Of a stretch of 56,283 nucleotides of DNA, positions 29,992-50,424 are shown piece after piece. Both the position numbers and the translations under genes were made by a program. The stretch lies in sequence record SRR22947725_5541; one strand, given 5' to 3'. Under the pieces are notes generated by a model that was given only the letters and a program-made list of their open reading frames with translations, had not been told where the DNA came from and did no database searches. The stretch's first letter is position 1; the number at the start of each line of letters is the position of its first letter.

Positions 29992-29997
29992 ATCTTC

Positions 29998-30498: not shown

Positions 30499-30592
30499 GG
30501 ATTTAAATCATTCTTTGCAGCTCGTTTGTCCCTTACTGCTTTTGTTGCTTGTCGTGACCATTGTGCTCATTGAATCTATGGGGCAGGTTAAT

Positions 30593-31123: not shown

Positions 31124-31142
31124 GCGTGTGTTCTCCTCTCGA

Positions 31143-32228
31143 TTAAAGGTGTTTTATCCACAATATGGTGGCTGTAATGATGATGTTTGCTAGAGCTAGC
31201 GGTAAAAATGTTTTCCACCCAAGGTCCATCAATTGATCGTATCGAAATCGTGGAAGCATCCATCGAATCCATATGAACAATCCCATGAAGACTGCCACTT
31301 TGGCGAGAAAAACCAGAATGTGAATCAGCCCCCCCCCGAACGTGCTGGCAGTTTCATTCAGTCCGAAGAAAGGTAACGTCCAGCCACCAAAGAAAAGCAC
31401 TACCATCAGGGCTGAAACTGAAATCATCGCCGCATACTCACCCATGAAGAAGAGAGCAAACTTCATTGAACTATATTCTGTATTGTAACCGGATACGAGT
31501 TCCGTCTCGGATTCAGGCATGTCGAAAGGCAGCCTGTTGGTTTCAGCAAAAGCAGAGACCAGAAAGATGACGAAAGCAATGGGTTGTTTGAAAATCAGCC
31601 AGGCTCCATTTGCCTGGTACTCGATCACTTTGCCAAGATTCAGTTCTCCCACCAGCATGAACACCGGAACTGCCGCCATTCCCATCGCAATCTCATAGGA
31701 AATCATCTGTGCACTTGCTCGAACGCCACCGAAGAATGGGTATTTGGAGTTGGAAGCGTAACCTGCGATGACAATGCCATAAACCCCCAGAGACACCACG
31801 CTGAAGGTATAAAGAATACCCACGTTCAAATCGGCGATCACCATGGATTGGTTGCCGAGTTTGGATCCGAACGGAATCACGGCAATGGTCAGAAAAGCCG
31901 GTATCACACTTAGTGCCGGAGCGAGTATGAAATAAGCCTTTCGAACATGCAATGGAGTGAAGTCTTCCTTCAGTATCGACTTCAATCCGTCAGCCATAGG
32001 CTGGAGTAATCCGAAGGGGCCCACACGATTCGGCCCCACGCGATCCTGAATCGCGGCACTGACACGCCTTTCCAGCATGACCGAGTATGCGATCATTGGC
32101 AGAAGTATCCCTATGGCCATGACGACCTTCAGGGCGCTGAACATCAGAAACGGGCCCCAGGGACCCAATAGCGAGTTCTGCACTGTATCGTGCATGACGG
32201 CGGCTATTGTTGGATCGTGAAATACCAT
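31143..32228 (-). CDS. nuoH: NADH-quinone oxidoreductase subunit H
   Basis: QDRVGPNRVGPFGLLQPMADGLK, AQMISYE, AETNRLPFD and PRFRYDQLM. Confidence 0.96.
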   Translation of the reverse strand: MVFHDPTIAAVMHDTVQNSLLGPWGPFLMFSALKVVMAIGILLPMIAYSVMLERRVSAAIQDRVGPNRVGPFGLLQPMADGLKSILKEDFTPLHVRKAYFILAPALSVIPAFLTIAVIPFGSKLGNQSMVIADLNVGILYTFSVVSLGVYGIVIAGYASNSKYPFFGGVRASAQMISYEIAMGMAAVPVFMLVGELNLGKVIEYQANGAWLIFKQPIAFVIFLVSAFAETNRLPFDMPESETELVSGYNTEYSSMKFALFFMGEYAAMISVSALMVVLFFGGWTLPFFGLNETASTFGGGLIHILVFLAKVAVFMGLFIWIRWMLPRFRYDQLMDLGWKTFLPLALANIIITATILWIKHL

Positions 32229-32248
32229 GTTTTGTCTTCGCTCTTCCC

Positions 32249-33964: not shown

Positions 33965-33970
33965 GTGGAG

Positions 33971-35386
33971 TTAATTCGCTGAGTTTACTGTACCTTTTTG
34001 GTTGGACTCCAGTTGCGCTGCTTCATCTGCAGCACCTCTAGCCTCGAATTCGTCTTTGAATTTTTTGACAAAACTAAGCACAGGCCATGAACAAGCCTCG
34101 CCAAAAGCGCATATTGTGCGGCCTTGAATGTTCGTCGCAATGTGTGTCAGATAATCTGCATCCTCTTTTCTCCCTTTGCCGCTTGTCATGCGATTCAATG
34201 CCTTGCTCATCCAGAGAGAGCCCTCTCTGCATGGCGTGCACTGGCCGCAGCTTTCATGCGCGTAGAAGGCTGAGACATTTGCCAGCGCTTCCACGATGTC
34301 CACGCTGTCATCCATCACGATAATCGCACTGGATCCCGACATGGTTCCTGCGGCCATGAGCGAATCAAAATCATAAGGTAGATCCAGTAAATCCACCTCT
34401 ACGGATTCCAGTTCTCCGTCCTTGTTGGGGCGTTTCATCTGGAATTTTTCTCCTGCTTTCAGGACTTTCGCAGATGAGCCTCCTGGAATGATCGCTTTCA
34501 AAGTTCTGCCCTCGAGCAAACCGCCACCGAAAGCGTCATCAAAAATCAACTCACCAATCGTTGCCTTGCCTACTTCGATTTCGTAATAACCCGGCTTCTT
34601 CACCATGCCGCTCAAGCTCACGATACGAGTGCCCGTATTCCGGGGAGTTCCTAACTTCGCATACTCAGAGCCACCCATGTTCATGATATGGCCCACGGCG
34701 CAAAGTGTTTCGACGTTGTTCACGATTGTTGGACACATGTAAAGCCCCAAAACCGCCGGGAAATAGGGAGGTTTGATGCGGGGATAGGCTCTTTTTCCCT
34801 CCAGAGATTCGATCAGTCCTGTCTCCTCACCGCAGATGTAAGCGCCTGCTCCGCGATGCACATGGATCTCCAGATCGTATCCGGTTCCCAGGACATTCTT
34901 GCCGAGGAATCCTTTTTCTCGAGCCTCATCTAGCGCCTTGTTCAGAATGCGTGCACCTTCAGGAAACTCTCCGCGGATATAGATGTAGGCAAGATGCACG
35001 TCATTTGCAAATGCACTGATGATCATGCCCTCAACTAACTGGTGAGGATCTTTATGGATGATCTGCCTGTCCTTGAAAGTACCCGGCTCAGATTCATCTG
35101 CATTACAAATCATGTAAATGGGCTTACCGCTCCGACGGTCCACAAACGACCATTTGAGACCGCAAGAAAATCCTGCCCCACCACGCCCTCGGAGCCCACT
35201 GGACATGACCTCGTCTCGGATTTGTTCCTGAGGGGTTTTTGTTTTACCGTCGTCGGTCTCTTTGGCCTTCAGCGCGATGGATTTTTTTAACGCTTCGTAG
35301 CCGCCGTTAGTCATATAGCAGTCAATGTCCGGAGTGTATCCGGGCTTGTCTGCATTCTTCAATATGAGTCGAAATTCTTTAGGCAT
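33971..35386 (-). CDS. nuoF: NADH-quinone oxidoreductase subunit F
   Basis: GRGGAGF, NADESEPGTFKDR, GAYICGEE, SCGQCTPCREG and TICAFG. Start moved to MPKEFR because the track start overlaps a tRNA. Confidence 0.96.
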   Translation of the reverse strand: MPKEFRLILKNADKPGYTPDIDCYMTNGGYEALKKSIALKAKETDDGKTKTPQEQIRDEVMSSGLRGRGGAGFSCGLKWSFVDRRSGKPIYMICNADESEPGTFKDRQIIHKDPHQLVEGMIISAFANDVHLAYIYIRGEFPEGARILNKALDEAREKGFLGKNVLGTGYDLEIHVHRGAGAYICGEETGLIESLEGKRAYPRIKPPYFPAVLGLYMCPTIVNNVETLCAVGHIMNMGGSEYAKLGTPRNTGTRIVSLSGMVKKPGYYEIEVGKATIGELIFDDAFGGGLLEGRTLKAIIPGGSSAKVLKAGEKFQMKRPNKDGELESVEVDLLDLPYDFDSLMAAGTMSGSSAIIVMDDSVDIVEALANVSAFYAHESCGQCTPCREGSLWMSKALNRMTSGKGRKEDADYLTHIATNIQGRTICAFGEACSWPVLSFVKKFKDEFEARGAADEAAQLESNQKGTVNSAN

Positions 35387-35405
35387 TGAAATCCATTCTG
35401 GTTGC

Positions 35406-35433
35406 TTGACTCCAAAAATCGTTTTGCTATGTT
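35406..35433 (+). promoter_or_regulatory. Putative promoter of tRNA-Gln
   Basis: TTGACT (35406-35411), 16 nt spacer, extended TGc-TATGTT (35428-35433), 18 nt before the tRNA. Confidence 0.6.
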
Positions 35434-35451
35434 TTCGCGTCTTAAGTTTTT

Positions 35452-35525
35452 TGCCGGATGGTGTAATGGTAGCACAGCAGTCTCTGAATCTGCTTGTCAT
35501 GGTTCAAATCCGTGTCCGGCAGCCA
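35452..35525 (+). tRNA. tRNA-Gln (anticodon CTG)
   Basis: Acceptor TGCCGGA/TCCGGCA-G-CCA, D arm GTGT-AATGGTA-GCAC, anticodon loop CT-CTG-AA, T loop GTTCAAATC, encoded CCA, 74 nt. Confidence 0.93.
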
Positions 35526-35557
35526 CCCCGTCTACAAACGATAGTTTCTTCTTTTGA

Positions 35558-36043
35558 TTATGGGCATTGATTGATGATCGTGTCTGCTTTCTCCTGACTG
35601 ACACCTTCGTGAAATTCATTATTGCACATTATGACAGGGGCTGTGCCACAACTAGCCAGGCACTCCACGAACTCCACTGAAAATTTGCCGTCTTCCGATG
35701 TCTGAAGCCCATGATTATCGGCATCCAAACCCAATTTGGAGCATACATGCTTATGGAGTTTTCCCGAGCCACCCAATGCGCAGCTCAATGTACGGCAAAC
35801 CTTTAGCACGTATTTACCTGCCGGCTCCTGCCTGAACATTGGGTAGAAAGTAACAAGCTCGTGAACATTGATTGGTTTTAGCTCAAGCTTCTTTGCAATC
35901 CATTCGATGCTTTCCTTGGAAACATGACCAAAGTGTTCCTGCAATGCGTGCAGAAGCATCATCGAAGCACTTCGCTTTTCTGGATAATGAGTGATCAGTT
36001 CTTCGATCTCGCTCTCCAGCTTTTGAGGTATGTTCAGACTCAT
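35558..36043 (-). CDS. nuoE: NADH-quinone oxidoreductase subunit E
   Basis: VTFYPMF, VCRTLSC and ECLASCGTAP (2Fe-2S ligands). Confidence 0.94.
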   Translation of the reverse strand: MSLNIPQKLESEIEELITHYPEKRSASMMLLHALQEHFGHVSKESIEWIAKKLELKPINVHELVTFYPMFRQEPAGKYVLKVCRTLSCALGGSGKLHKHVCSKLGLDADNHGLQTSEDGKFSVEFVECLASCGTAPVIMCNNEFHEGVSQEKADTIINQCP

Positions 36044-37308
36044 CTGTCGCTTTCTCCCATTACAAAATCGATTGAACCCAAAATCGCCACGACATCACTC
36101 ATCATTTCTCCCTTCAACAAGTAAGGAAGCACACTAAGATTCACGAACGACGGGGCACGGATTTTCATGCGGTTCGGTGTTCCTCCACCAATACTGTGTA
36201 TGTAAAATCCAAGTTCCCCTTTTGGGTTTTCAGCACCAAAATAAACTTCCCCGGAAGGGACGTTGACTCCCTGAGTCACCAACATGAATTGATGAATCAA
36301 TTCTTCCATGCTACTGAGCACTTTATCCTTGGCAGGAAGAACTGTCTTCCCATCGTCTATGCTAACAGGGCCTCCTGGAAGTTTGTCCAGACATTGACGT
36401 ATGATTTTGGCGCTTTGACGCATTTCTTCCATACGCACAAGGTATCTGTCATAGGAATCGCCCTTGGTCCCGACTGGAACCTCAAAATCCAATTCAGGAT
36501 AAACGAGGTAGGGGTTGCTTTTTCTCAAATCGTGTTCCACGCCGGATCCCCTCAGATTTGGGCCGGTGATTCCGTAATCAATAGCAATGTCTCTTGGCAA
36601 TACTCCGACCCCCTGCGTGCGGTCTACAAAAATTCTATTTCGAGTCAGGAGTGTTTCAGTCTCATCGAAATTGAATTCCACTTCTTCCAGGAATTTTCGA
36701 CATTGATCTACCCAACCATCCGGAAGGTCACGTGCAATACCTCCAATCCTCGTAAAGGAAGTAGTGAATCTGGCTCCTGTCAGTGATTCACACAGATTGT
36801 AAATTTTTTCACGTTCGGTAAACGTATGAAGAAATACAGTCAATGCTCCCACGTCCATTGCAAAGGCTCCAAGTCCCAGCAGATGAGCGGAAATACGTGC
36901 TAACTCGCAGCAGATAACACGTATGTATTGGCCTCTCTCAGGCAGCTGTTTGTCGATCCCCATCAGTTTTTCAACCGCAAGGGCATAGGCGACGTTGTTG
37001 GCTAGTGGTGCGAGGTAGTCCAGTCTGTCTGTATAGGGAACAAACTGGTTGTAAGTCATGCTTTCGGCAATTTTCTCATCGCCTCGGTGTAGATAACCCA
37101 CATCCGGACTGGCCTTGGTGATGATTTCACCATCAAGCTCCAAGATAATGCGTAGCACGCCATGGGTCGAAGGGTGAGAAGGGCCCATGTTGAGGATGAG
37201 TTTTTCGCCCATCATCTCCTCCTGACCCTGCACCTCAGCGGACTCGATACCATCCAGCGTTCTGCCGGCGGCGTCCTTTATCTCCAGGTCTTTGATTTCT
37301 GGTGCCAT
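36040..37308 (-). CDS. nuoD: NADH-quinone oxidoreductase subunit D
   Basis: NMGPSHPSTHGVLR, GYLHRG, DRLDY, ENPKGELG and D.VMGESDR. Confidence 0.97.
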   Translation of the reverse strand: MAPEIKDLEIKDAAGRTLDGIESAEVQGQEEMMGEKLILNMGPSHPSTHGVLRIILELDGEIITKASPDVGYLHRGDEKIAESMTYNQFVPYTDRLDYLAPLANNVAYALAVEKLMGIDKQLPERGQYIRVICCELARISAHLLGLGAFAMDVGALTVFLHTFTEREKIYNLCESLTGARFTTSFTRIGGIARDLPDGWVDQCRKFLEEVEFNFDETETLLTRNRIFVDRTQGVGVLPRDIAIDYGITGPNLRGSGVEHDLRKSNPYLVYPELDFEVPVGTKGDSYDRYLVRMEEMRQSAKIIRQCLDKLPGGPVSIDDGKTVLPAKDKVLSSMEELIHQFMLVTQGVNVPSGEVYFGAENPKGELGFYIHSIGGGTPNRMKIRAPSFVNLSVLPYLLKGEMMSDVVAILGSIDFVMGESDR

Positions 37309-37410
37309 GCTAATCTTCTTTTAAAATGTTACTTCTGCTAGTTTTCCCGGTCCTGACCCTCGAAATGGGCATGTAGTATCTTGTTTCCGAGCAAACGATA
37401 TTTTCAGTTG

Positions 37411-38004
37411 TTAATCTACTGTGCGCGCCCTTGGTTCACGTAAAGTAGTATGTGGTTGTCCTGGAGAAGTTACAAAAGGTCCACCTTCCATAGGTGCCTT
37501 TTCAGTGAATGCAACATCTGGCAGCTCGGTTTCTTTGCCCTCCAGAGGAAAATCCTTCCTCAATGGAAAGTAAGGATAGCCTTCCCACATGAGGATACGT
37601 CTTAGATCCGGGTGGTTCGTGAAGCGAATACCCATCATGTCGTATGTTTCGCGTTCATGCCAATCAGCCGTTTTCCAAACTTTTTCTACAGAAGGCACTT
37701 CACAATTCTCCTCTTCAACAAACACTTTCAAACGTAGATAAGTCTTGTTGGTCATACCGTAAAGCTCGTAGACCACGGAAAACCGAGGTTCTTCGCCCAG
37801 ATGATCCACTCCTGATAGATCCGTCAGGCAATCGAAACCAAGTTCATTTTTTGCGTAATTGCAGATCTCAGCGATTTTCGTCTTGTCATTGACCACAAGC
37901 GTGCATTCGCCCCTGAACTCGTAGATTTCCGAAAGCAAATCACCGAACTTGGCTTTCAAGTCGTTCGCCAGTTTTGCAGTTTTTTCGATGCTTGCGTCGC
38001 TCAT
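37411..38004 (-). CDS. nuoC: NADH-quinone oxidoreductase subunit C
   Basis: ADWHERETYDMMGIRF.NHPDLRRILMWE and PLRKDFPL. Start moved to MSDASI. Confidence 0.94.
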   Translation of the reverse strand: MSDASIEKTAKLANDLKAKFGDLLSEIYEFRGECTLVVNDKTKIAEICNYAKNELGFDCLTDLSGVDHLGEEPRFSVVYELYGMTNKTYLRLKVFVEEENCEVPSVEKVWKTADWHERETYDMMGIRFTNHPDLRRILMWEGYPYFPLRKDFPLEGKETELPDVAFTEKAPMEGGPFVTSPGQPHTTLREPRARTVD

Positions 38005-38032
38005 ATTTTTTATAAATGAATACTTGTTTAAG

Positions 38033-38575
38033 TCACTTGACGTGAGCACCTGCGAGAGCATCCGGTTTAGGTGCCTTGTGTGTCCTTATCAAAGGCTCTT
38101 TTGCGACCTGCTTCTGCAGTTTCATCAACGCATCCAGCAAAGCCTCCGGTCGGGGAGGGCATCCTGCCACATAGACATTCACTGGCACAATCTTGTCCAC
38201 ACCCTGCAAAACGGAGTAACTGCGATACATACCTCCAGTGGAGGCGCATGCTCCCATGGCAATCACCCACTTGGGTTCTGCCATCTGATCGTAGATGCGC
38301 CTCAGCGCCAGGGCCATCTTGTAGGTCACAGTGCCTGCTACTATCATAAGATCAGACTGACGTGGTGAAAAACGCATCACTTCCGAGCCGAATCTTGAAA
38401 TATCGAACCTACTGGATCCCGCTGCCATCAATTCGATGGCGCAGCAAGCCAATCCCATCGGCATCGGCCACAGGGAATTCTTCCTAAACCAATTCAGCAC
38501 GGCATCGACCTGAGTGACTATCACGTCTCCTTCGACTTTAGTGTTGTATCCTATTTCTTTTTGTGATGGATTCAT
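38033..38575 (-). CDS. nuoB: NADH-quinone oxidoreductase subunit B
   Basis: [25 protein letters not shown] and GCPPRPE. Confidence 0.96.
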
Positions 38576-38610
38576 TGTGATCTAATCAGAAAGCCCCTCC
38601 AGTTTCTTGC

Positions 38611-38639
38611 AAGCTACCGAGAGCTTAAAAGTGGTGCAA
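38611..38639 (-). promoter_or_regulatory. Putative promoter of the nuoB-N operon
   Basis: Minus strand TTGCAC (38639-38634), 17 nt spacer, TAGCTT (38616-38611). Confidence 0.45.
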
Positions 38640-38645
38640 GTGAAT

Positions 38646-38663
38646 TTGTGATTTTTTTCACAA
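38646..38663. promoter_or_regulatory. Palindrome TTGTGA-N6-TCACAA (Rex operator-like or CRP-family site)
   Basis: TTGTGATTTTTTTCACAA contains an exact TGTGA-N6-TCACA and matches 13 of the 14 defined positions of the Rex consensus TTGTGAAnnnnTTCACAA. Confidence 0.7.
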
Positions 38664-38782
38664 GCGTTATTGACGAGTCTAGATGGGTTCTGATAATCAT
38701 ATTTCCAGCATTAATAATGTGTTGCGTTAATTTGGGGCGTTTGAGCATGCAAACTGCTGAAAAACAGCAGTTTAAAAGTTTA

Positions 38783-38857
38783 GGCGGAGTAGCCAAGTGG
38801 TAAGGCAGGGCTCTGCAAAAGCTCTATGCGTCGGTTCGATTCCGACCTCCGCCTCCA
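38783..38857 (+). tRNA. tRNA-Cys (anticodon GCA)
   Basis: Acceptor GGCGGAG/CTCCGCC-T-CCA, anticodon loop CT-GCA-AA, T arm GTCGG-TTCGATT-CCGAC. Confidence 0.96.
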
Positions 38858-39093
38858 TCCCTTAATGCTTAATGAGTGGTTTTTCTCAGGGTAGTGCCTG
38901 CAGGTTTTGGTTTTGAAAAGAGTTTTTGTTTCTTTCCTTGCCTTGCTTGCGGCTAATCCTAAAGTGGTGCCGCTTTTTCTGTGAAATAAGTGGTTTTTCT
39001 ATTGGGGCCGCTCGTTTCGATGAAATGAGCGGCATTGGTGAACAACAGTTTTGTTCCGCTTTTATTAACTTAATATTAACTATAGATATCTGA

Positions 39094-39762
39094 ATGTCGG
39101 ACGTTTTTCCAAAATGGACGAATAAACTGCCTATCCGCGTTATCGTCGGACTCATCCTTCTGGGGGGAGCAACGGTGGTTGGCTTGACCTATTATGCGAC
39201 ACCTAAATACACGCGGGTGGGTTACCAACCCGTCCAACCCGTGGCTTTTTCGCATGCCATCCATGCAGATCAGCTTGGTCTCGACTGCCGTTATTGTCAC
39301 AACGGAGTGGAATCCTCCTGGTTCAGCAACGTTCCTGCAGCCTCGGTTTGTATGAATTGTCACAATCAGGTCAAAAAGGACGATCCTAAACTGGCCATGG
39401 TCAGAGAGAGCTACGACTCGGGTGAGCCCATCCCTTGGGTGCAGATACATAAAGTTCCAGACTATGTTTATTTCAACCATTCGGTGCACGTGAATCGCGG
39501 ATTTTCCTGCGTTGAATGCCACGGCCCTGTCAACAAAATGGATGAGGTATATCATGCGAAACCATTCGGTATGAGTTTTTGTCTCGAATGCCACCGAAAT
39601 CCTGCTGCCAAAATCCGGCCTCTGGACAAGATTACCGACTTGGATTGGAAATGGGATGAGGATCCCCAGAAGGCTTCCGAATTACAACAAACCCATGGAG
39701 ACCAAATGGTCCATGATTGGAAAGTTGAATCCCTTGTAAACTGTTCTGCGTGTCATCGATGA
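39094..39762 (+). CDS. actA: Alternative complex III subunit ActA (pentaheme cytochrome c)
   Basis: N-terminal TM helix, QPVQPVAFSH..H, and five CxxCH motifs (CRYCH, CMNCH, CVECH, CLECH, CSACH). Confidence 0.93.
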   Translation: MSDVFPKWTNKLPIRVIVGLILLGGATVVGLTYYATPKYTRVGYQPVQPVAFSHAIHADQLGLDCRYCHNGVESSWFSNVPAASVCMNCHNQVKKDDPKLAMVRESYDSGEPIPWVQIHKVPDYVYFNHSVHVNRGFSCVECHGPVNKMDEVYHAKPFGMSFCLECHRNPAAKIRPLDKITDLDWKWDEDPQKASELQQTHGDQMVHDWKVESLVNCSACHR

Positions 39763-42700
39763 AAGACCTAACGTATTCCCCAAAAACATCTGGACCTGCT
39801 TACTGGCGCAGTCTGGACGAGCTGACGGAGACTCCTGAGTTTCGTCAATGGGTGGAAAAAGAATTCCCCGAAAGCACTTTGGAAGCTCCCAGTGGTCAGT
39901 CTCGTCGCGATTTCGTCAAAATCATGGGAGCCTCTTTTCTTCTTGGAGGGATGGGCCTGACGGGTTGTCGGCGTCCGGAGGAAACGATTGTGCCGTTTTC
40001 CAAGATGCCTCAAAATTACGTGCACGGTGTGCCGCAATATTTTGCAACTTCCATGCCCACACGTGACTCCGCCGTACCTTTATTGGCCAAGTCCAGCGAT
40101 GGGAGGCCTACCAAAGTTGAAGGCAATCCCGATCTGTCATTTGGCAAGGGAGGCACGGATGCTTTCGCGCAAGCTTCATTGCTGAATCTCTACGATCCGG
40201 ATCGCTCCAAAAAATTTCTCAAAGAAGGGAACGCCTCGAGCCGTTCAGCTGCCCTCGGTGGGTTGAAAGCTATCAGTGGCAAGTTTCAAGGAAACAAGGG
40301 AAAAGGACTTCATTTCCTTGTCCAGCCGACAAGCTCGCCTTCTCGTAATCGTCTTGAAATGATGATTCGCGAACAACTCCCTGAAGCCAAATGGCACGGA
40401 CATGAGCCGGTTGATTTCAGAAATGCTTCCAAGGCTTCCGTGAAGTCTTTCGGAAAGGCATTGCGCCCAATGCCTCATTTCGACAAAGCCAAGGTGATCT
40501 TCTCCCTGGACAATGACTTCCTTGGAGCTGAGCAGGAATCTTATTCCCACATACGTGGTTATGCTGATGGTCGTCGATTGAAAGAGACAGAGGATCATCA
40601 TTCAACGATGAATCGACTTTACGCAGTCGAAAGCCTAATGACACTGACTGGCTCAAATGCTGACCATCGTCTGCGAGTCACTTCTGGTCAGGTTTTCAGC
40701 GTTGCAGCTGCAATGGTCGAAGAAATTTTCAATCAGATCGGAAATAGTGATGACGATGCAGGCAGTCCCATCACCGCCTTGCGAAGTTCGCTTCGTGAAA
40801 AAGCCAAAGCAGTTGCTGTCGATCCCAAATGGATCACGGAATCGGTGAAAGATCTGGTTGCTCACCAAGGCGAATGTCTCGTAGTTGCTGGATACCGCCA
40901 GCCTGAATCTGTTCACCAGCTGGCCACTGCACTCAACGTTCTGCTCGGTAACCTCGGGGAAACAGTGTCTTATGTCTCGGATAACTCTATCTCCTACGAC
41001 TCTCTCGAGGCGTTAAAGGGGGAATGTGATGCGGGTAGTGTGGACACACTCGTTGTTTTAGGTGGAAATCCAGTTTATGACGCCCCTGCTGACTTCGATT
41101 GGAAAATCACTCAGCGCAAGGCCAAAACTGTGGTGCGTCTGGGTTATTACGACGATGAAACTTCCGATGGTTGTGACTGGCACTTGCCAATGGCTCATTA
41201 TCTCGAGTCCTGGGGTGATGCGCGGTCAGGTGATGGAAGCTACCTCCCCGTCCAGCCATTAATGGCTCCTCTTTTCGATGGTCTGACTGATCTGGAGGTA
41301 ATTGCCCGTATTGCTGGCAATGATGAAATCAAGCCTTACGATATCGTCAGAACAACCCTCAGAGGAGTTGTAGGGGAAGCTGGTTTTGAAGGTCAATGGA
41401 AACAGTTTCTGCATGATGGTTATCTGGAATCTCTCAAGCCAGAAAATGTGGATATAAAAGCGGACACTTTCGATTGGTCAGCTGTGACTCGTGAAGTGAG
41501 TCAGGCGATCACCGAAGCAGATCAATCCTCAGCGGCATCCAAAGATTCTCTCGAAGTCGTCTTTCACCGTGATTCCAGCATGGATGACGGCCGTTTCAAC
41601 AACAACGGTTGGATGCAGGAGATGCCCGATCCAATGACCAAGATTACTTGGGATAATGTGGTGTTGATGAGCCGACGTACTGCGGCCGAGCTGGGGGGGA
41701 TCAAGAACAAGGAGATGGTAGAAATCGTCCTTGACGGTCGCAAAGTTCAGGGGCCTGTCTGGATCCAGCCTGGTTTTGCAGATTTTTCTCTGGGGCTTGC
41801 CCTCGGTTATGGGCGTACTCACAGCGGTCGTGTTGGTGGGATCGAATCTGAATCGGTCGGCTTCAACGCGTATGCCATCCGTGCATCCAAAAACAGCAAC
41901 TTTGGAACTGGGGCCAAGCTCAACCGCTTGAACCGTATCTTCGATATTTCATGCACTCAGGACCATTGGTCGATGGAAGGACGTGCGATTGTTCGTGAGG
42001 CAAACCTCGAGCAATTTGAAGAAAAACATGATTTTGCCCAGAACATGGATCTGGAGGCGCATACAAGCCATATCCCTCACGATGATGAAGGGAATCCAGC
42101 AGAAATCTACGAGCATCCATACAAGGCCCGCCCCTCCACGAGCAGCGACATTCATCAGTGGGGAATGGCTATCGATCTGCAGACCTGCGTGGGTTGTTCT
42201 TCCTGTGTGGTTGCTTGCCAGAGCGAAAACAACATTCCAATTGTTGGCAAGGAGCAAGTAGCCAACAGTCGTGAAATGCACTGGATGCGTATTGACAGGT
42301 ATTACAGCGGTAATCCTGAAACACGCGGTAATGCAAGCAATCTGATCATGGATGATGAGCAGCCTTATCAGGAATGGATTGATGATCCTCAAGTCGTCAA
42401 TCAACCGATGATTTGTCAGCACTGCGAAAGTGCTCCTTGCGAAAGTGTTTGCCCAGTGAATGCGACGGTTCATGATCACGAAGGACTCAATGTCATGGCT
42501 TACAACCGTTGTGTCGGAACCCGCTATTGCTCCAATAACTGTGCATGGAAAGTGCGTCGTTTTAACTATTTTGACTACAACAAGCGTCCCATCGACCAGC
42601 TTTATGAAGGACCGCTTGCCTCTCGGCCTGAAGAGGACATCGATCTCATAGAAATGGCCAAAAACCCTGATGTCACTGTTCGCATGCGTGGCGTCATGGA

Positions 42701-43127
42701 AAAATGCACCTTTTGTACTCAGCGTATTGAGCAAGCCAAAATTGCCAAAAAGGTTGCTGCCAGAGATTCAGGAGACATTGAAGTGCCTGACGGGACCATC
42801 AAAACCGCCTGCCAACAGGCTTGTCCGGCAGATGCGATTGCATTCGGTAATTTACTAGACCCTGAAAGCAAGGTATCCAAACTCAAGAAGAGCCCGCGTA
42901 ACTACGCCGTACTTGGATTTCTGGATACCAGGCCACGCACGACTTATCTGGCAAAGATTCGTAATCCGAACAAAAACATGCCCGACTATCATACCATGCC
43001 ATTGAGCACTTTGGAGTATACAGAGAACATGGGAAGTCCGTTTGAGGAACATGGCTCATCCCACGGAGGGGAAGCCCACGAGAGTGGACATGCGGTTGAA
43101 ACTCACTCAGAAGGAGGGCAACACTGA
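39759..43127 (+). CDS. actB: Alternative complex III subunit ActB (Tat-exported molybdopterin-oxidoreductase-like domain plus Fe-S domain)
   Basis: YWRSLDEL, Tat motif SRRDFVK, lipobox LTGC, four C-terminal Fe-S motifs including [11 protein letters not shown], and [16 protein letters not shown] overlap with actA. Confidence 0.94.
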
Positions 43128-44554
43128 TGTCATCGCCTGGCACACATCATTCAGTTGAAATTGCACCTCCGCCTCGAGAAATCGAGCGCGAACCATTGGT
43201 CCTGAACAATCGGTCCCTCGCTTGGATCTCTGACCAAATCGCCGGTATCATTGAAGGTAAAACACCAAGGTGGTGGTGGGTGATGATGGCCTGCAGTCTC
43301 CCATTGATGCTCATGTGCTTTGCCATGATCGGGTATCTGATCTCTACAGGTGTCGGAGTCTGGGGTTTGAACCATCCGATCGCATGGGGCTGGGCCATTG
43401 TGAATTTCGTGTTCTGGATTGGTATTGGTCATGCTGGAACTTTGATTTCAGCGGTACTTTTTCTATTGAGGCAGAAATGGAGGACATCGATCAACAGGGC
43501 AGCTGAGGCGATGACAATTTTTGCAGTGATGTGTGCGGGGATTTTTCCAGGCATCCACGTGGGACGTATCTGGTTTGCCTGGTGGTTGTTTCCTCTCCCA
43601 AACGCAAATGGACCCATATGGCCGCAGTTTAGATCTCCTCTCTTGTGGGACGTATTCGCGGTATCCACTTATTTCACCGTCTCATTTCTCTTCTGGTATA
43701 TGGGATTGATTCCTGATTTAGCAACCATCCGAGACCGTTGCAAAGGGTTCATTCGAAAATTCGCCTACGGTTTATTCTCATTAGGATGGACAGGATCCAA
43801 CCGTCATTGGAGCAATTATGAAAAGGCTTATCTCCTTTTGGCTGGCCTATCCACACCGCTCGTTTTGTCGGTGCACAGTATCGTTTCATTTGATTTCGCG
43901 GTATCGCAGTTGCCGGGTTGGCACACTACTATCTTCCCGCCTTATTTCGTGGCGGGAGCCATTTTCTCAGGTTTCGGTATGGTGCTGACTTTAATGATTC
44001 CCTTGCGTTCGATTTTCAAGCTAGAAGACTTGCTGACGATCCGACACATCGAATTGATGTGTAAGGTGACCTTAGCCACCGGCACCATTGTAGGATACGC
44101 CTATGGCATGGAATTTTTCATTGCCTGGTATGGCGGTAACCCTTACGAAGCTTATGCTTTCCAGAATCGTGCCTTCGGCCCTTACTGGTGGGCTTATTGG
44201 ATCATGATTTCGTGCAATGTGATCACCCCTCAGTTTTTCTGGTTCAAGAAACTGCGAACGAACGTTGTGGTCGTTTGGGTGTTATCCATTTTTGTGAATA
44301 TTGGCATGTGGTTTGAGCGGTTTGTGATTGTTGTCACTTCGCTGCACCGAGACTACCTGCCGGCTAACTGGGGATATTATTCTCCAACCAAAGTAGATGT
44401 GTTGACCTTCATCGGTACATTTGGATTGTTCATGGTTCTGTTTCTCTTGTTCATCAGATTCCTGCCATTGATCGCCATTTCTGAAGTGAAGGGAGTCACC
44501 AATCAGGCAGATCCACATCATCCGCTGGGTGGTGCGAAAGGAGGTCACCACTAA
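43127..44554 (+). CDS. actC: Alternative complex III subunit ActC (NrfD family, quinol-binding)
   Basis: [42 protein letters not shown] and [12 protein letters not shown]. Confidence 0.95.
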
Positions 44555-45093
44555 TGAGTGATAATTCTCAAGCATACGGCCTTTTGGCTGAATTTACGAC
44601 GCCTGCGGATGCCATGCATGCCGCGGAGAAAATCAGGGATGCTGGGTATTCTCGATGGGATGTTCACACTCCATTTCCCATTCATGGAATGGATGATGCG
44701 ATGGGGCTAAAAGACTCCAAAGTGGGTTGGTTCTCTTTCTGTGGTGGAGCGACAGGTTTCACCGCAGGTTACTTAATGGTTTGGTTCATGAATAGCGTCA
44801 ACTACCCAATCGTTGTGGGAGGTAAGCCACTGTTTAGTCCAATGTTTCCCTTTCCGGTTGTCTATGAAATGACCATTCTACTCTCCGCTTTTGGAGCGTT
44901 GTTTGGAATGTTAATTCTGAATCGGTTGCCTAAACTACATCATCCTTTGCTAAAGAACCGTCGTTTCAAGGGGGCGACCCATGACAAATTTTACGTGATT
45001 ATTGAAACGTCGGATCCCCGTTACATCGAATCGGAGACACGCGAACTGCTTGAATCGACTGGCTGTAAACACATGGAAATGGTGGAGGACTGA
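44554..45093 (+). CDS. actD: Alternative complex III subunit ActD (DUF3341)
   Basis: LAEF, TPFPIHGMDDAMG, VGGKP and YEMTIL. Confidence 0.92.
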   Translation: MSDNSQAYGLLAEFTTPADAMHAAEKIRDAGYSRWDVHTPFPIHGMDDAMGLKDSKVGWFSFCGGATGFTAGYLMVWFMNSVNYPIVVGGKPLFSPMFPFPVVYEMTILLSAFGALFGMLILNRLPKLHHPLLKNRRFKGATHDKFYVIIETSDPRYIESETRELLESTGCKHMEMVED

Positions 45094-45094
45094 G

Positions 45095-45709
45095 ATGCGA
45101 TATTTTATAACCCTTTACATATTATTAATCGTGGCCTTCGTAGGTGTGGCCGGATTTCGTGGCACCATTTCACGTAAACCTCCCATCGAGGTGTTCCCGG
45201 ACATGGATCGGCAAATGAAGTTGCGTCCGCAGGAGCCAAATCGTTTCTTTGGGAACCGAAGAAGCTCTCAACCATTCGTACCAGGCACGATTGCTCGTGG
45301 AATGCCTTACAAGGATATCCCTCTGAACACAGGTCGAATAACAGGTTCAACCAACTGGGTTGAAATCAGCCCGGTTGAAATTACTGAAGCTGTCATGGAG
45401 CGTGGACACCAGCGCTACGATATTTATTGCACACCCTGTCATGGTGCGGCTGGTGATGGCAAGGGGATCACTGGCAAATATGGGATGGTAGCCGTGGCCA
45501 ATTTTCACGATCCGCGTCTGGTATCCATGACCGATGGGGAAATATTCAATACCATTACCCACGGTAAGAATCTGATGGGCCCTTATGGTGCCAATATCAA
45601 AATCGAAGATCGTTGGTCTATCATCGCTTATCTTCGTGCGCTCCAGCGCAGTCGGTTGTCCACAATGGACGATGTGCCCGAACCACAAAAAGCAGCTCTT
45701 CAAAATTAA
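45095..45709 (+). CDS. actE: Alternative complex III subunit ActE (monoheme cytochrome c)
   Basis: PDMDRQ, GTIARG, CTPCHG, IFNTITHG..LMGPY and DRW.IIAY.RALQ. ATG at 45095. Confidence 0.9.
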   Translation: MRYFITLYILLIVAFVGVAGFRGTISRKPPIEVFPDMDRQMKLRPQEPNRFFGNRRSSQPFVPGTIARGMPYKDIPLNTGRITGSTNWVEISPVEITEAVMERGHQRYDIYCTPCHGAAGDGKGITGKYGMVAVANFHDPRLVSMTDGEIFNTITHGKNLMGPYGANIKIEDRWSIIAYLRALQRSRLSTMDDVPEPQKAALQN

Positions 45710-45715
45710 CGACCT

Positions 45716-46963
45716 ATGAGTTCTGAAACATCCAATGCATCTGAACCCAAGCTGGATCTGGCCAAATGGGCCAAGCTTCCAAACCAACTTATGTTGGGTG
45801 GTGGCATCTTATTGTTGATCGGTTTCCTGTTTCCTGGTTGGCGCGATCAGTTTTACTATAGCTATCTGACCGGTTTCATGTGCTTTTTGAGCCTGACGCT
45901 TGGGTCACTATTTCTGGTTCTCCTGCACCATTTGTTTGATGCCTACTGGTTGGTGCCTGTTCGCAGGTTTCTCGAACATATTGCATGTCTTGCACCCACG
46001 ATGGGATTTTTGTTTCTACCCATCCTGATTTTCTCATCACAAATATATCCATGGATGTCGATTGATCCGAATATTGATCATGCCTTGCATGTAAAAGTGG
46101 CACTCTTCAACAAGAAGGCCTTCTGGATCACCTCAATCGTGCTGTTTGTTATTTGGACGTGGTTGAGCAAAAGTTTACGCAAGCATTCATTGGCCCAAGA
46201 TGAAACGGGGGCAGCTACGCATACACATTCACTGCGCAAATTGGCGGCACCAGGGGTAATCATTTTTGCCTTCACACTCACACTTGGTGTCATTTTCTGG
46301 ATGAAATCGCTGGAGCATCAGTGGTTCTCTACCATGTATGGTGTCTATTACTTTGCCGGCAGCGTCTGGTTGACCCTGGCCACAACTTACTTGCTCACCG
46401 CCATCCTGCAGCGAACAGGGCATCTCGCTCCTGTCGTCACAGACAATACCTACAAAGACATCGGGACATTGTTTTTTGCTTTCACTGTCTTTTATGCCTA
46501 TATCCATTTTTCTCAGTATTTCTTGATATGGAATGCAGCTATTCCCGAAGAAACTTTCTGGTACGTCAAACGTGAGAATGGTATTTGGGAGAGCATCGGT
46601 TATCTGATCATTTTCGGACATTTCTTTGTTCCTTTCCTGGCGATGCTTCGCATAGACGTTAAGAAATCGCTCATCATCATGGGGCCACTTGCCATCTGGG
46701 CCTGGTTGATGCACTACGCAGACATGACTTACAACATCAAACCAGTGCTGGACCCAGAAGGCGGTAGCATCACTCTGAGTGGATTTGTCCAAAGTATTGC
46801 AGCCTTGGCTTTCATGGGCGGTGTTTTATCCAAAGGCTTTTTAAAATCATTTATCAGTCATCCTCCTTTCCCTCAGAAGGACCCTCGCATCGCTGAGGCC
46901 ATGGGAGTTTATGTAGAATTGGAATCCGAGGCGGCTAATAAGACTAAATCTGCGGACGCATGA
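45716..46963 (+). CDS. actF: Alternative complex III subunit ActF
   Basis: Polytopic membrane protein with VRRFLE, WMKSLE..WFSTMYG, Y.HFSQYFLIW and PEET.WY..R. Confidence 0.9.
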   Translation: MSSETSNASEPKLDLAKWAKLPNQLMLGGGILLLIGFLFPGWRDQFYYSYLTGFMCFLSLTLGSLFLVLLHHLFDAYWLVPVRRFLEHIACLAPTMGFLFLPILIFSSQIYPWMSIDPNIDHALHVKVALFNKKAFWITSIVLFVIWTWLSKSLRKHSLAQDETGAATHTHSLRKLAAPGVIIFAFTLTLGVIFWMKSLEHQWFSTMYGVYYFAGSVWLTLATTYLLTAILQRTGHLAPVVTDNTYKDIGTLFFAFTVFYAYIHFSQYFLIWNAAIPEETFWYVKRENGIWESIGYLIIFGHFFVPFLAMLRIDVKKSLIIMGPLAIWAWLMHYADMTYNIKPVLDPEGGSITLSGFVQSIAALAFMGGVLSKGFLKSFISHPPFPQKDPRIAEAMGVYVELESEAANKTKSADA

Positions 46964-47003
46964 TTTTCATAGGATGACACAAATCCAGAATATTTCCTGA
47001 TTA

Positions 47004-47390
47004 ATGAGAACAAGCATCAGTAATAAACAGAATATGCGAGGCGTTGCCTTCGTTTATTTCGTGGGGATCATGGCCACGTTTTTCATCATGGCCTTTCTTA
47101 TTTGGGTGACCAAGGAATTCACAGAGCCCAGAGCAATCGCTGCAAATCGCGCGAATGAGCGTGCAGAAAATTTGCAAACTGTCAACGAAGCAGTAGCTCC
47201 CTTGTTGAATGAATACGGTTGGCAAGATCAGGAAAAAGGTTTTGTAAGGGTGCCCATCAAACGCGCGATGGAACTCACGGTGAAAGAGTGGCAAAATCCT
47301 GCCAAAGCCAGATTGGAGTTAATATCCAGAATGGAAAAGGCAACTGCGCTCCCACCACCGCCACCCGAAGAACCCAGTGCTTTTGAATAA
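47004..47390 (+). CDS. Small single-TM protein following actF (ActG-like)
   Basis: One TM helix and the motif LNEYGWQD..KGFVRVPIKRAMEL, which I recognise from small proteins downstream of actF. Alternative start at 47034. Confidence 0.65.
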   Translation: MRTSISNKQNMRGVAFVYFVGIMATFFIMAFLIWVTKEFTEPRAIAANRANERAENLQTVNEAVAPLLNEYGWQDQEKGFVRVPIKRAMELTVKEWQNPAKARLELISRMEKATALPPPPPEEPSAFE

Positions 47391-47438
47391 TAAGCCGGTC
47401 AATATTAAATCAATGACGTTGCTGAACAAGTAAACGGT

Positions 47439-48911
47439 ATGGACGTTACTCAATCATCTAAATCACCATCTGACTGGACGGAAATCGATTCATCTTATCG
47501 TTTTCCAACACTCTTCCTTGCATCTAAAGCAGTAGGTTGGCTTTTGTTAGGAAGTATTTTTTCTCTCATTGCATCCATTAAGATGCACTCACCAAGTTTT
47601 CTGGCAAGCTGCCCATGGGTAACCTACGGGGTCATGATTCCGGCTGCCTTGAACGCGGTCGTTTATGGATTTGCTCTTCAAGGTGCATTTGCCGCCTTAC
47701 TCTGGATCACCATGCGATTGGGGCAAGTCAAGTTGGTTGGGCCTGGTTACCTTTTCATTGGATCCGCGCTTTGGAACGTCGGTGTACTTCTGGGGGTCAT
47801 CGGTATCATGGCAGGGCATAGTTCGGGCCACACTTATCTGGAAATGCCCGGGTTCGTTTCGCCCATCTTATTTGCTGCCTACACGCTCATTGGAGGAATG
47901 GCGCTGGTGACCTTTCACAAACGACAAGTCCGCGAGCTTTACCCATCCCAGTGGTTTATTTTTGCCGCCCTCTATTGGTTTCCATGGATATTGACTGCTG
48001 GCAGTTACTTGCTCGTTATCTCCCCTGTCAGGGGAGTGACTCAAATGATCATTGGTGGTTGGTATGCATCCGGATTGAATGTCATCGTACTCGGTTTTGT
48101 CGGCATTGCCATCATTCAATACATGTTGCCCAAGTTAACCAAGCGCGACTTACACAATGGTTATCTTTCATTGTTTTCCTTCTGGATCATTATGCTTTTT
48201 GGTGGATTCACTGGTCTGTTTCCCGGTCAATCACTTCCATCCTGGGTGGGATCGCTCAGCGCTGTATGCAGTGTCTTCGTTGCATTTGCCTGGTTGGTTC
48301 TCGCCTACAACATCTATCGAACCATTGGAGGCGCTTCCGGTAAATCGGGTGGTCTTTCCTACAAATTCATTTATTTCTCCGCTGCTGCGGGGCTGCTATC
48401 CGCCGTGTTGACCGCCTGGGCTTCCCGAGCCTCTGCTGCAGATGTCGTTCAGTTTACTTTATTCCTTCCTGGCCTGAAATGGTTGCATCTTTACGGGTTT
48501 GTTGGAATGGGATTACTCGGGTGCATTCACTATTTTCTTCCAAAAGTTACCGGAACCGAATGGTCGAGACCGGGGCAATGGACTGCTATTTTCTGGACTT
48601 ATGCCATTGGGACAAGTGGGGTGGCAATCGCCTTTCTGGTTGGGGGATGGAAGCACGGTAAAGGTTTAATTGACCCAGAAACTCCTTTCATGGACGTGGT
48701 CCGTGAAGGTATTGCCCCTTTCGTGCGAATCAGCACCGTCGGTGAATTGCTAGTTTTCGTAGCAGCCGCCTTACTCTGCTGGAACGTCATAACCTTGTTT
48801 TGTAGAACCTACTGCTCCTGCTTTTGTTTGGGAGGCCTTTCACAGGACAAGGCTGGAACTTCCAGTGAAACAAAGAAATCTCAACCCAAAAAAAGTTCGA
48901 AAAACAAATAA
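47439..48911 (+). CDS. cbb3-type oxidase subunit I (CcoN) homolog apparently lacking heme/CuB histidine ligands
   Basis: About 12 TM helices with CcoN-like landmarks (TYG..P...NA..YGF, YLE, LY.S.W, WY, Y.LPK, SFW, LP.W, FT, YGF, Y.LP). It is followed by a ccoO-like gene. Confidence 0.82.
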   Translation: MDVTQSSKSPSDWTEIDSSYRFPTLFLASKAVGWLLLGSIFSLIASIKMHSPSFLASCPWVTYGVMIPAALNAVVYGFALQGAFAALLWITMRLGQVKLVGPGYLFIGSALWNVGVLLGVIGIMAGHSSGHTYLEMPGFVSPILFAAYTLIGGMALVTFHKRQVRELYPSQWFIFAALYWFPWILTAGSYLLVISPVRGVTQMIIGGWYASGLNVIVLGFVGIAIIQYMLPKLTKRDLHNGYLSLFSFWIIMLFGGFTGLFPGQSLPSWVGSLSAVCSVFVAFAWLVLAYNIYRTIGGASGKSGGLSYKFIYFSAAAGLLSAVLTAWASRASAADVVQFTLFLPGLKWLHLYGFVGMGLLGCIHYFLPKVTGTEWSRPGQWTAIFWTYAIGTSGVAIAFLVGGWKHGKGLIDPETPFMDVVREGIAPFVRISTVGELLVFVAAALLCWNVITLFCRTYCSCFCLGGLSQDKAGTSSETKKSQPKKSSKNK

Positions 48912-49801
48912 TGAATCAGGGCCCCTTACTTTTTTTAAGCGTGCTTTGCGCCATGGCTGCCTCTTGGATGGGCTTCGTGCTGATGCCTCAGGTTCAGCTC
49001 GGTAACCAGTCCACACGACTCGTCAAAGAAATTGGCAGGCATTATCCTGCTGAGCGTGGAGGCATAGCGGTTAAAGGTCACGATGTTTACCGCGCTGCGG
49101 GCTGTGTGTCTTGTCACACCCAACAGGTCCGACAAACCGGTTTCATCTTCGATATCGTGTTGACTGATGCTGGCGATTTCACCGACTTGGTTACCTCACT
49201 CGTTCAACAAGCCAATGGTGATCTGTCCGATCAACAGGCCGCAGATATTGTTGCTAATGCACCGAAGACAATCCTGGAGGGTGTGTCGAAACAAACGGTG
49301 GACAGTATCGCTTTTTTGTTCAAAGACAGCGGTGGCAAAGTTGCTGCGAACATCCGACCCATTGGACCGGATATTGATCGTGGATGGGGACCTCGCCAGA
49401 CCGTTGGACTGGATTATTTGTTTGATGAACCCGTATTAATGGGCAGCCAACGTATTGGTCCTGATCTGGCAGATGTTGGCTCTCGTCTGGCAGATAGAAA
49501 TTGGCATTTACTGCATCTTTACCACCCTCGCACGGTTGTTGAAAAGTCGATCATGCCCGCTTATCCCTATCTATTTGAAACACGTGAAATCGGCGATTCA
49601 CCTTCTCCAGACGCCTTGGCGCTGAAAGGTGAGTTTGCCCCTGAAGAGGGCATGGAAGTAATACCCACCTCGGAAGCAAACGCTTTGGTTGAATACCTGC
49701 TTAGCCTCCGAATCTTTCACCCCGTTTTTGAAGCCCCCTACATATTTACCCAAGCTGAACCCAGTGAAAACATCGATTCGGAAATGGAGCCGGCTGAATG
49801 A
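48911..49801 (+). CDS. cbb3-type subunit II (CcoO/FixO)-like monoheme cytochrome with a ~70-aa insertion
   Basis: TM anchor, GHDVY...GCVSCHTQQVR, GSQRIGPDLA, WHLLHLYHPR, SIMPAY (axial Met) and ALVEYLLSL. TAATG overlap with the upstream gene. Confidence 0.88.
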   Translation: MNQGPLLFLSVLCAMAASWMGFVLMPQVQLGNQSTRLVKEIGRHYPAERGGIAVKGHDVYRAAGCVSCHTQQVRQTGFIFDIVLTDAGDFTDLVTSLVQQANGDLSDQQAADIVANAPKTILEGVSKQTVDSIAFLFKDSGGKVAANIRPIGPDIDRGWGPRQTVGLDYLFDEPVLMGSQRIGPDLADVGSRLADRNWHLLHLYHPRTVVEKSIMPAYPYLFETREIGDSPSPDALALKGEFAPEEGMEVIPTSEANALVEYLLSLRIFHPVFEAPYIFTQAEPSENIDSEMEPAE

Positions 49802-50424
49802 GTGCAAAGCCTAAGAAAACTGTCCACAAGAAAAAGCACGCAGATGAACGTGAACCTGGGGTACATCAGGAACCAGTTCCCGTCCTGTTATTTGTCATTT
49901 TGCTGCTTCTTGCCTTTTGGGGAATGATGTATCTGCACACCAATGCAGGTGGTTTCAATCGCTATGTTTATGGCCCATTTGAGTCATATGCCATGGTTTC
50001 CGACGTCCAGCCGGGTAGTTCGGATGACCCAATGAAGCGTGGTGCTGATGTTTACAAAAGCATTTGCCTCCCCTGTCACCAAGCATCAGGTTTGGGAGCT
50101 CCCGGGCAATTTCCTCCTCTTGCTGGTTCCGATTGGGTGAATGTAGAAGGCCCCAACCGCATGCTTCGTATCGTAATCAACGGTCTGAGCGGTCCTGTTG
50201 AAGTCAACGGGCAAAGTTGGTCTGGTGCCATGCCCGGGTTTGGCGATGTGATTGCTTCTGACGAAGACCTGGCTGCTGTGATCACGTATGTCCGTAATTC
50301 ATGGGGTAACGAGGCGAGTGTTTGCACTCCTGAGGAGGCAGCATTAGTGCGATCAGAATCAGCGGATCGTGGTCGCCCATGGTCCAGCCCTGAATTACTC
50401 AACCTCTCTGTTGAAGTCCAGTAG
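49798..50424 (+). CDS. Membrane-anchored class I monoheme cytochrome c
   Basis: TM helix, CLPCHQ, FPPLAGS, GL.GPVEVNG, AMP and AAVITYVRNSWGN. ATGA overlap. Confidence 0.9.
   Translation: MSAKPKKTVHKKKHADEREPGVHQEPVPVLLFVILLLLAFWGMMYLHTNAGGFNRYVYGPFESYAMVSDVQPGSSDDPMKRGADVYKSICLPCHQASGLGAPGQFPPLAGSDWVNVEGPNRMLRIVINGLSGPVEVNGQSWSGAMPGFGDVIASDEDLAAVITYVRNSWGNEASVCTPEEAALVRSESADRGRPWSSPELLNLSVEVQ

Follow-up and report, generated by a model that had tools for sequence, protein, structure and literature searches.

The genes of cbb3-type oxidases are a widely used genomic marker of high-affinity, microaerobic respiration. In Flavobacterium johnsoniae and Rhodothermus marinus, supercomplexes of the alternative complex III (ACIII) with aa3- or caa3-type oxidases are described in which electrons are handed over directly through a heme wire and no soluble carrier takes part (excerpts of PMC5928083 and PMC8498564). 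For Methylacidiphilum methanotrophs, excerpts of PMC6688271, PMC8498564 and PMC10205796 report that the ACIII genes adjoin a 'cbb3-type' oxidase, which is counted among three terminal oxidases. Here we analysed a related arrangement in a DNA stretch of 56,283 nucleotides (sequence record SRR22947725_5541, hereafter the window). The eighth gene of its ACIII operon (47439..48911, plus strand) encodes pN, a 490-aa protein with the 12-helix fold of CcoN, subunit I of the cbb3 oxidases, which has neither the six His ligands of the metal cofactors nor the Tyr of the His-Tyr cross-link. Judged by sequence and gene order, pN is a conserved cofactor-less branch of C-family subunit I that is tied to ACIII.

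Fold and ligand columns of pN

The initial annotation had read pN as a full-length CcoN homolog with an intact reading frame of 490 aa, and both points hold. The open reading frame (ORF) is unbroken, residues 31-437 match Pfam COX1 (PF00115) with 82.1 bits at a cut-off of 34.8, and the closest solved chains are the cbb3 CcoN subunits 9g6b_A (E 1e-12) and 3mk7_A (E 5.8e-11). An AlphaFold2 model built on a 50-sequence alignment reached a mean predicted local distance difference test score (pLDDT) of 90.2 and a predicted template modelling score (pTM) of 0.89. It superposes on 3mk7_A and 9g6b_A with template modelling (TM) scores of 0.84-0.89 and a root-mean-square deviation (rmsd) of 2.4 Å over ~460 columns.

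The ligand columns were assigned by a HMMER alignment to 3mk7_A and by four MAFFT alignments with His-complete CcoNs, all of which agree. The heme b His of helix II corresponds to A70 of pN within GVMIPAALNA and the CuB His of helix VI to S211 within GWYASGL. G255 stands in the place of the cross-link Tyr, and the His-His pair of helix VII (CuB) is F261/P262 or falls into a 2-residue gap. In helix X, L346 occupies the column of the proximal heme b3 ligand and W348 that of the second heme b ligand. pN contains eight His in total (50, 127, 131, 160, 239, 350, 364 and 406) and none of them lies in a ligand column; H350 is found two residues past the last one, the off-register position of the single helix-X His already noticed by eye. 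The replacement of all six canonical His, likewise proposed by eye, is thus confirmed and extends to the cross-link Tyr, and the alignments place no His or alternative ligand at the metal sites.

The same picture emerges from the 88 degenerate relatives. Their ligand columns are variable in composition (A/Q/G/S, N/A/S, P/L, Q/L/R and Q/W/H), and no His, Met, Cys or Lys has been conserved there as a substitute. The proximal-ligand column of heme b3 holds a His in only 1 of the 88 rows (P0087). At the cross-link column all 11 His-complete rows show Tyr, and 62 of the 88 degenerate rows show Gly. Scores against the COX1 profile fall as well: a fused CcoN-CcoO protein (CcoNO) scores 412 bits, the His-complete ACIII-linked protein of locus L052 259, pN of the window 82 and the protein of Methylacidiphilum kamchatkense Kam1 51.

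The need of heme-copper oxidases for the His ligands of heme and CuB is established chemistry. Since these ligands are missing, we infer that pN no longer reduces O2 or nitric oxide (NO). Mis-naming as a cbb3 oxidase by automated pipelines had been predicted, and it is indeed visible in the source names of degenerate members, 27 of which read 'cbb3-type subunit I/1' and one 'Cytochrome-c oxidase'. Against the NCBIfam ccoN equivalog TIGR00780, however, pN scores 64.9 bits and fails the cut-off of 583.15. Databases and papers that name the pN family a high-affinity oxidase are probably wrong.

Distribution, selection and origin of the family

A protein search with pN returned 89 clusters, and a relative was confirmed in at least 578 genome stretches. 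The best 80 of these served as related loci; their labels are, with few exceptions, Verrucomicrobiota, Limisphaerales or Pedosphaera. The gene order ActB-C-D-E-F, sm128 (a small protein), pN, pO (a CcoO-like cytochrome) and cytochrome c is identical in 80 of 80 loci up to the contig limits. pO is found in 76 loci, the four misses being contig ends, and a cytochrome c of the 208-aa type in 65, where 13 of the 15 misses are contig ends and two loci (L028, L032) run on without a match. The ORF of pN is unbroken in all loci of sufficient length.

A ligand census covered those pN proteins of the 80 loci that reach 430 aa, 69 in number. None of the six ligand His is present in 56 loci; ten have one, one has two, one has three (L053, the CuB set), and a single locus, L052, has all six together with the Tyr. 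In the pN of L053 (~4464-5849) the three CuB His are accompanied by none of the three heme ligands. This protein may represent an intermediate of cofactor loss or a copper-only site.

An even sample of 401 genomes of the phylum contains 121 with a family-profile match at E <= 1e-10. Of these, 95 belong to the order or class of the window, and ~90 score E <= 1e-108. Nine loci (L014, L025, L041, L050, L054, L057, L074, L075 and L076) show the verrucomicrobial ACIII-pN order under labels of other phyla given to metagenome-assembled genomes. The labels Haliangiales, Binatia, Acidoferrum, Bifidobacterium and Methylomirabilota were taken as binning or labelling noise and not as a wider range.

A quick IQ-TREE phylogeny (LG+G4, 100 rows) was rooted with seven canonical CcoNs. 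All 88 degenerate rows fall into a single clade with a Shimodaira-Hasegawa-like approximate likelihood ratio (SH-aLRT) support of 98; this clade is present across many families of the class, and isolated ligand His are scattered inside it. The His-complete P0086, L052 and P0049/P0051 are located at the base of the pN side of the tree; among them, ACIII linkage was confirmed for L052. The positions of L058, L097, P0076, L099 and others are unsure owing to long branches, and L058 (faulty extraction, branch 3.37) was excluded from the ligand-column, rate, conservation and interface counts. As all degenerate rows form one clade, the tree is compatible with a single loss of the full ligand set. The simplest history is that a working ACIII-coupled cbb3 oxidase (cf. 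L052) lost its cofactors once and was then kept.

The degenerate branch evolves faster: median root-to-tip distances from the common node are 1.8 (n=88) vs 0.80 (n=4) for the His-complete proteins, a ratio of ~2.2. Identity of pN over the loci is 36-45%, far below that of ActC with 54-100% (two weak matches of L045 and L069, which lie in the ActF region, set aside). At the same time, 11 positions are invariant and ~40 nearly invariant in the 50-sequence alignment. Ratios of non-synonymous to synonymous substitutions (dN/dS) were calculated by Nei-Gojobori for pN against L001, L002 and L003 (dS 0.12-0.23) and amount to 0.176, 0.076 and 0.123, respectively, which indicates purifying selection. 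The neighbouring genes yield 0.058-0.116 (ActF), 0.009-0.031 (ActC) and 0.17-0.21 (sm128). Because of the low dN/dS (0.08-0.18), the preserved operon order and the single degenerate clade, pN does not appear to be decaying.

The family reaches into cultured methanotrophs. The ORF L097:6084-7529 (+) does not differ from P0090, listed at NCBI as 'cytochrome oxidase [Methylacidiphilum kamchatkense Kam1]', and a 72% relative carries the label 'cbb3-type cytochrome c oxidase subunit I [Candidatus Methylacidiphilum infernorum]'. Both proteins have one of the six ligand His each and no His before residue ~187, hence none in helix II. The Kam1 protein is only 23% identical to pN of the window; it falls into the degenerate clade, and the ACIII operon order around it is that of the window. 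No other C-family match to the family profile was found in the L097 genome.

For strain IT6, an excerpt of 10.1101/2024.01.15.574570 reports no difference in 'cbb3' transcripts between O2-replete and anoxic N2O growth, and the available part of a 2026 Limisphaera species description lists a cbb3-type oxidase (PMC13608581). A classifier paper on heme-copper oxidases states, in the part available, that sequences without the six His were dropped (PMC3084760), so the present family would have been removed from that survey. No description of a His-less or pseudo-CcoN was found in the open literature, work on Methylacidiphilum expression included, subscription papers being outside the search. A literature match to 'lack the histidine' turned out to concern the His-Tyr cross-link of NO reductases, and a paper on acidobacterial cbb3 (PMC8407424) deals with other operons.

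Partners, neighbouring genes and other oxidases

Downstream of pN follow pO, a CcoO-like mono-heme cytochrome c (48911..49801, plus strand; Pfam FixO 88.1 bits), and a CcoP-like membrane-anchored mono-heme cytochrome c of 208 aa (49798..50424, plus strand; Cytochrome_CBB3 44.4 bits). The proposed coupling of pN to ccoO is seen in the letters themselves: stop TAA of pN and start ATG of pO share one base (TAATG). The genes of pO and the next cytochrome overlap by ATGA. In pO the residues C65, C68 and H69 of the CxxCH motif as well as M215 (S-x-M-P) are invariant in 37 aligned sequences. One CxxCH is present in 70 of 75 extracted pO proteins, the remaining five including truncated or mis-framed extractions, and in 65 of 65 extracted orthologues of the 208-aa cytochrome. 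With CxxCH (and the Met of pO) conserved, both proteins appear to be heme-competent.

A predicted complex of pN and pO reached an ipSAE interface score of 0.83 (runs 0.82, 0.83 and 0.83), the best of three controls 0.00. Contact agreement between the runs is 96% or more, partner pLDDT is at least 79, and the score passes a mark that 51 of 78 solved complexes and 2 of 108 mismatched pairs also reach. The model thus supports a binding of pO by pN. We further located the positions of pN that are conserved to at least 85% in the degenerate clade. Of the periplasmic-loop positions 14 of 60 reach this level, of the cytoplasmic ones 5 of 77 and of the helix positions 51 of 353. Conserved positions number 19 of 81 in the interface predicted for pO and 50 of 380 elsewhere (odds ratio 2.0, one-sided Fisher p = 0.017); H50, W180, W183, R198 and Q202 are clade-specific conserved residues of this interface.

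An N-terminal motif E-I-D-A-S-C-R-x-P (window 47490-47510, pN ~17-23) occurs in ACIII-linked CcoNs with ligands (L052, P0093) or without. The remaining canonical CcoNs of the alignment do not show it. S19, R21 and P23 of this cytoplasmic motif are at least 89% conserved. The motif could be a contact to ACIII.

pO contains an insert of ~75 residues directly after CxxCH (residues 77-151; 49139..49363, plus strand). It matches Pfam Ribosomal_L12 with E 5.3e-5 and 23.9 bits, just below the cut-off of 25.9. Its model (pLDDT 86-92 for residues 81-140) has a beta-alpha-alpha-beta-alpha-beta topology, and Foldseek retrieves 8yeq (TM 0.93 by target, rmsd 1.1 Å, 31% identity) and 1ctf (TM 0.90, 32%). 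Taken together, profile, model and structure search assign the fold of the L7/L12 C-terminal domain to the insert. Of 68 pO sequences measured, 57 carry the insert; it is absent from pO of L097 (Kam1), of L099 and of the His-complete L052 as well as from canonical CcoOs. The insert lies outside the predicted pN interface and is directed away from pN; it may form a docking surface for a next partner.

The operon consists of ten plus-strand genes: ActA-ActF, sm128, pN, pO and the 208-aa cytochrome c. It begins with ActA (39094..39762), the penta-heme cytochrome c of ACIII with 222 aa and five CxxCH, whose best NCBIfam match is a QrcA-type multiheme cytochrome (83 bits, under the cut-off). ActB (39750..43127, 1125 aa) is the large Fe-S subunit with 4Fe-4S dicluster domains (Fer4_7 57.7 bits and others) and is located upstream of pN in all related loci that reach that far. 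The C-terminus of ActB (43040-43127) is a His-, Gly- and Glu-rich tail with possible metal binding. ActC (43127..44554) is the NrfD-like membrane subunit (Pfam NrfD 83.1 bits), followed by ActD (44554..45093; Pfam ActD, PF11821, 215.4 bits) and the mono-heme cytochrome c ActE (45002..45709; Cytochrome_CBB3 43.5 bits), which is conserved in its operon position. For ActE the listed start is TTG at 45002, and ATG at 45086 was used for dN/dS. ActF (45716..46963), a membrane protein of 415 aa, has no Pfam or NCBIfam match and is named by its position as sixth gene; it stands directly before sm128 and pN in 79 of 80 related loci. The series of penta-heme, Fe-S, NrfD-like, ActD, ActE and ActF genes corresponds to the order of an ACIII operon, ActF being positional.

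The gene sm128 (47004..47390, plus strand) encodes a single-helix protein of 128 aa. In 79 of 80 loci its gene separates ActF from pN. It has no Pfam or NCBIfam match, and in the atlas it has only 'hypothetical protein' clusters of Verrucomicrobiota as neighbours. The His-complete L052 operon contains sm128 as well, and the protein may belong to ACIII or to the CcoN module as a subunit not recognised so far. Upstream of the ACIII-pN operon and divergent from it runs a complex I (nuo) operon (24775-38575, minus strand), with the intergenic region 38576-39093 common to both. No other oxidase genes were found within the window.

Parts of 45716-50424 are contained in 12 RNA-type runs. Contigs from marine metatranscriptomes cover all 30 bins of this region in four of four runs (four studies, one of them DNase-treated), and a single 3502-nt RNA-library contig reaches from ActF to pO. 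These contigs fit with transcription of the operon and are no proof of it.

Other oxidases were surveyed in five complete genomes with pN (G002-G006). An A-type COX1 is present in all five (434-439 bits). In L081 and L082 the A-type COX1 is flanked by heme O synthase and COX3; the ORF upstream of it was considered as subunit II and rejected, being the UbiA-type heme O synthase. A fused CcoN-CcoO of 714-722 aa with six His and Tyr is encoded in two of the five genomes (G002 and G003). In the remaining three no other C-family match was found. The assembly factors CcoS and CcoH score above cut-off only in G002 and G003, where CcoS adjoins the fused CcoNO, and were not found in G004-G006, which have pN only. 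In the even sample, 65 of the 95 matching same-class genomes have at least two family-profile matches; the second matches examined (G357, G183, G105, G060 and G066) are His-complete with Tyr in 5 of 5 cases.

Role of pN and comparison with known systems

Three possible roles were offered for pN with the initial annotation, namely scaffold, ion conduit or heterodimer partner. The scaffold is the best supported of them, by the preserved heme site of pO, the complex model and the conservation of the periplasmic face. We therefore lean, with some reserve, towards pN being redox-dead and serving as a membrane platform for c-type cytochromes at ACIII. pN would have arisen when the catalytic subunit of a cbb3 oxidase coupled to ACIII lost both hemes and CuB, and as a platform it would keep the hemes of pO and of the 208-aa cytochrome c beside ACIII. 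Electrons from quinol would pass along the ActA/ActE heme wire to these two cytochromes and from there to a separate terminal oxidase, either the A-type enzyme or the fused CcoNO cbb3, or to another periplasmic acceptor. In contrast, the canonical enzyme sends its electrons down into heme b and the heme b3-CuB site. The L7/L12-like domain of pO, facing away from pN, would offer the docking surface for the next partner.

Several points weigh against the platform. The link between pN and ACIII is drawn from gene order and nothing else. The pass of the pN-pO model may reflect memory of, or likeness to, CcoN-CcoO complexes that are already solved, and the enrichment at the pO interface is only modest (p = 0.017). 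A passive anchor would have no evident need of the 51 well-conserved positions inside the helices (such as Y76-G77-F78, W89, G115 to I123, W180-F181-P182-W183). The RNA-library contigs may stem from DNA and are silent about level, strand and a single transcript. The contrast in assembly factors counts for about one independent case, because G004-G006 are close kin (L016, L018 and L038 form a tight clade). Moreover the nearest genome, G001 (79% complete), lacks this region and gave no PF00115 or pN match.

A bolder formulation, which we put forward tentatively and hold to be somewhat improbable as a whole, extends to a large clade inside the class Verrucomicrobiae, the cultured Methylacidiphilum methanotrophs among them. 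An ACIII-coupled cbb3 oxidase would there have become a redox-dead but obligate part of a new ACIII supercomplex. The gutted CcoN would serve either as a hand-off platform, with an L7/L12-derived docking domain on CcoO, that distributes electrons from ACIII to several terminal acceptors, or as a conformational proton mover driven by ACIII.

The well-conserved helices would also be accounted for if pN were an ion- or proton-conducting or coupling subunit, driven conformationally by ACIII like cofactor-free antiporter-like or NrfD-like subunits. The whole 12-helix fold is kept (pLDDT 90) with 51 of 353 helix positions conserved to at least 85%, dN/dS is as low as in ActF, and polar positions in common with true CcoNs remain (R162, E135, Y228, T295, N291 and T340). 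We nevertheless rate such a conduit as unlikely. Tyr and Ser residues that are invariant in the 11 His-complete rows are mostly Phe and Ala in the degenerate clade, with Y to F at 227 (64 of 88) and 318 (51 of 88) and S to A at 244 (68 of 88), which weakens this part of the earlier proposal; these positions may be proton-path residues of cbb3. Moreover no charged residue inside the helices is conserved at the 85% level, and the periplasmic loops, not the membrane core, are most conserved. As a partner in the regulation or assembly of a true cbb3 oxidase, in a heterodimer with the fused CcoNO or as its decoy, pN would find a counterpart in many genomes, given the 65 of 95 with at least two matches and the His-complete second matches. 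This loses ground, and becomes rather improbable, as no second C-family CcoN accompanies pN in three of the five complete genomes and the L097 genome has a degenerate copy only. In addition, pN is always found in the ACIII operon with its own CcoO-like protein and cytochrome c and never beside the fused CcoNO.

Binding of heme or metal by non-His ligands, with some redox reaction performed by pN, could draw on the residual His of the census (ten proteins with one, one with two, and L053 with the CuB set) and on Gln as the commonest residue in both helix-X columns (34 and 39 of 88). However, the columns of the window protein hold Ala, Ser, Gly, Phe, Pro, Leu and Trp, none of them metal-binding, and they vary freely in the clade. 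The proximal column of the catalytic heme is His in P0087 alone, and CcoS and CcoH were not found in the pN-only genomes; hence we think this very improbable. A decaying, functionless pseudogene carried along by the operon might be suspected from the ~2.2-fold faster evolution (1.8 vs 0.80) and from an identity far below that of ActC. It is the least credible reading and already contradicted by an ORF that is unbroken in every locus long enough, by dN/dS of 0.08-0.18, by a single clade kept over many families of the class, by the 11 invariant and ~40 nearly invariant positions in 50 sequences and by the confident predicted fold.

Whichever role applies, the use of cbb3 genes as a marker fails here: records of JGI, NCBI and UniRef name as cbb3 a family without the cofactor-binding residues. 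The reach is a large share of the sampled Verrucomicrobiota, with 121 of 401 genomes matching the profile and ~90 of them at scores of the pN type. Cultured organisms are affected as well, since the Methylacidiphilum 'cbb3', one of three terminal oxidases counted in excerpts of PMC8498564 and PMC6688271, is in the pN family. A six-His filter such as that described in the available part of PMC3084760 may overlook the family by design. If pN is indeed redox-dead, such organisms would not have the cbb3 oxidase credited to them and a high oxygen affinity must come from other enzymes, with direct consequences for the reading of cbb3 genes in Verrucomicrobiota. Beyond annotation, the family offers a natural experiment on the role of a heme-copper subunit I scaffold without metals. 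Its gene order points to an ACIII-associated complex, and pO presents a ribosomal L7/L12 C-terminal domain seemingly recruited into a periplasmic cytochrome.

Compared with the known systems, the pN module resembles the ACIII-aa3/caa3 supercomplexes in that genes of the heme-copper oxidase family follow the ACIII genes. There the neighbour is an active A-type oxidase, whereas here it is a C-family module without cofactor sites, linked by gene order. With canonical CcoN (3mk7/5djq, 9g6b and 8smr) pN has in common the 12-helix fold (TM 0.84-0.89, rmsd 2.4 Å), the type of partner (a mono-heme CcoO and, after it, a CcoP-like cytochrome), and the residues W34, P52, G64, R162, W172, G199, Y228, P231, F248, W249, P267, W269, T295 and G403. 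It differs by the missing ligands of heme b, heme b3 and CuB, by the missing cross-link Tyr, by an identity of ~20% and by its location in an ACIII operon instead of ccoNOQP. Closest are the His-complete CcoNs of other Verrucomicrobiota with confirmed (L052) or putative ACIII linkage (P0093, P0049 and P0051), which share with pN the operon place (ActF, small protein, CcoN, CcoO), the EIDASCR-P motif, a sister position in the tree and 38% identity. In contrast to pN, they have kept the six His and the Tyr, with 259 bits against COX1 for L052 and a CcoO without the L7/L12-like insert, and are presumably working oxidases.

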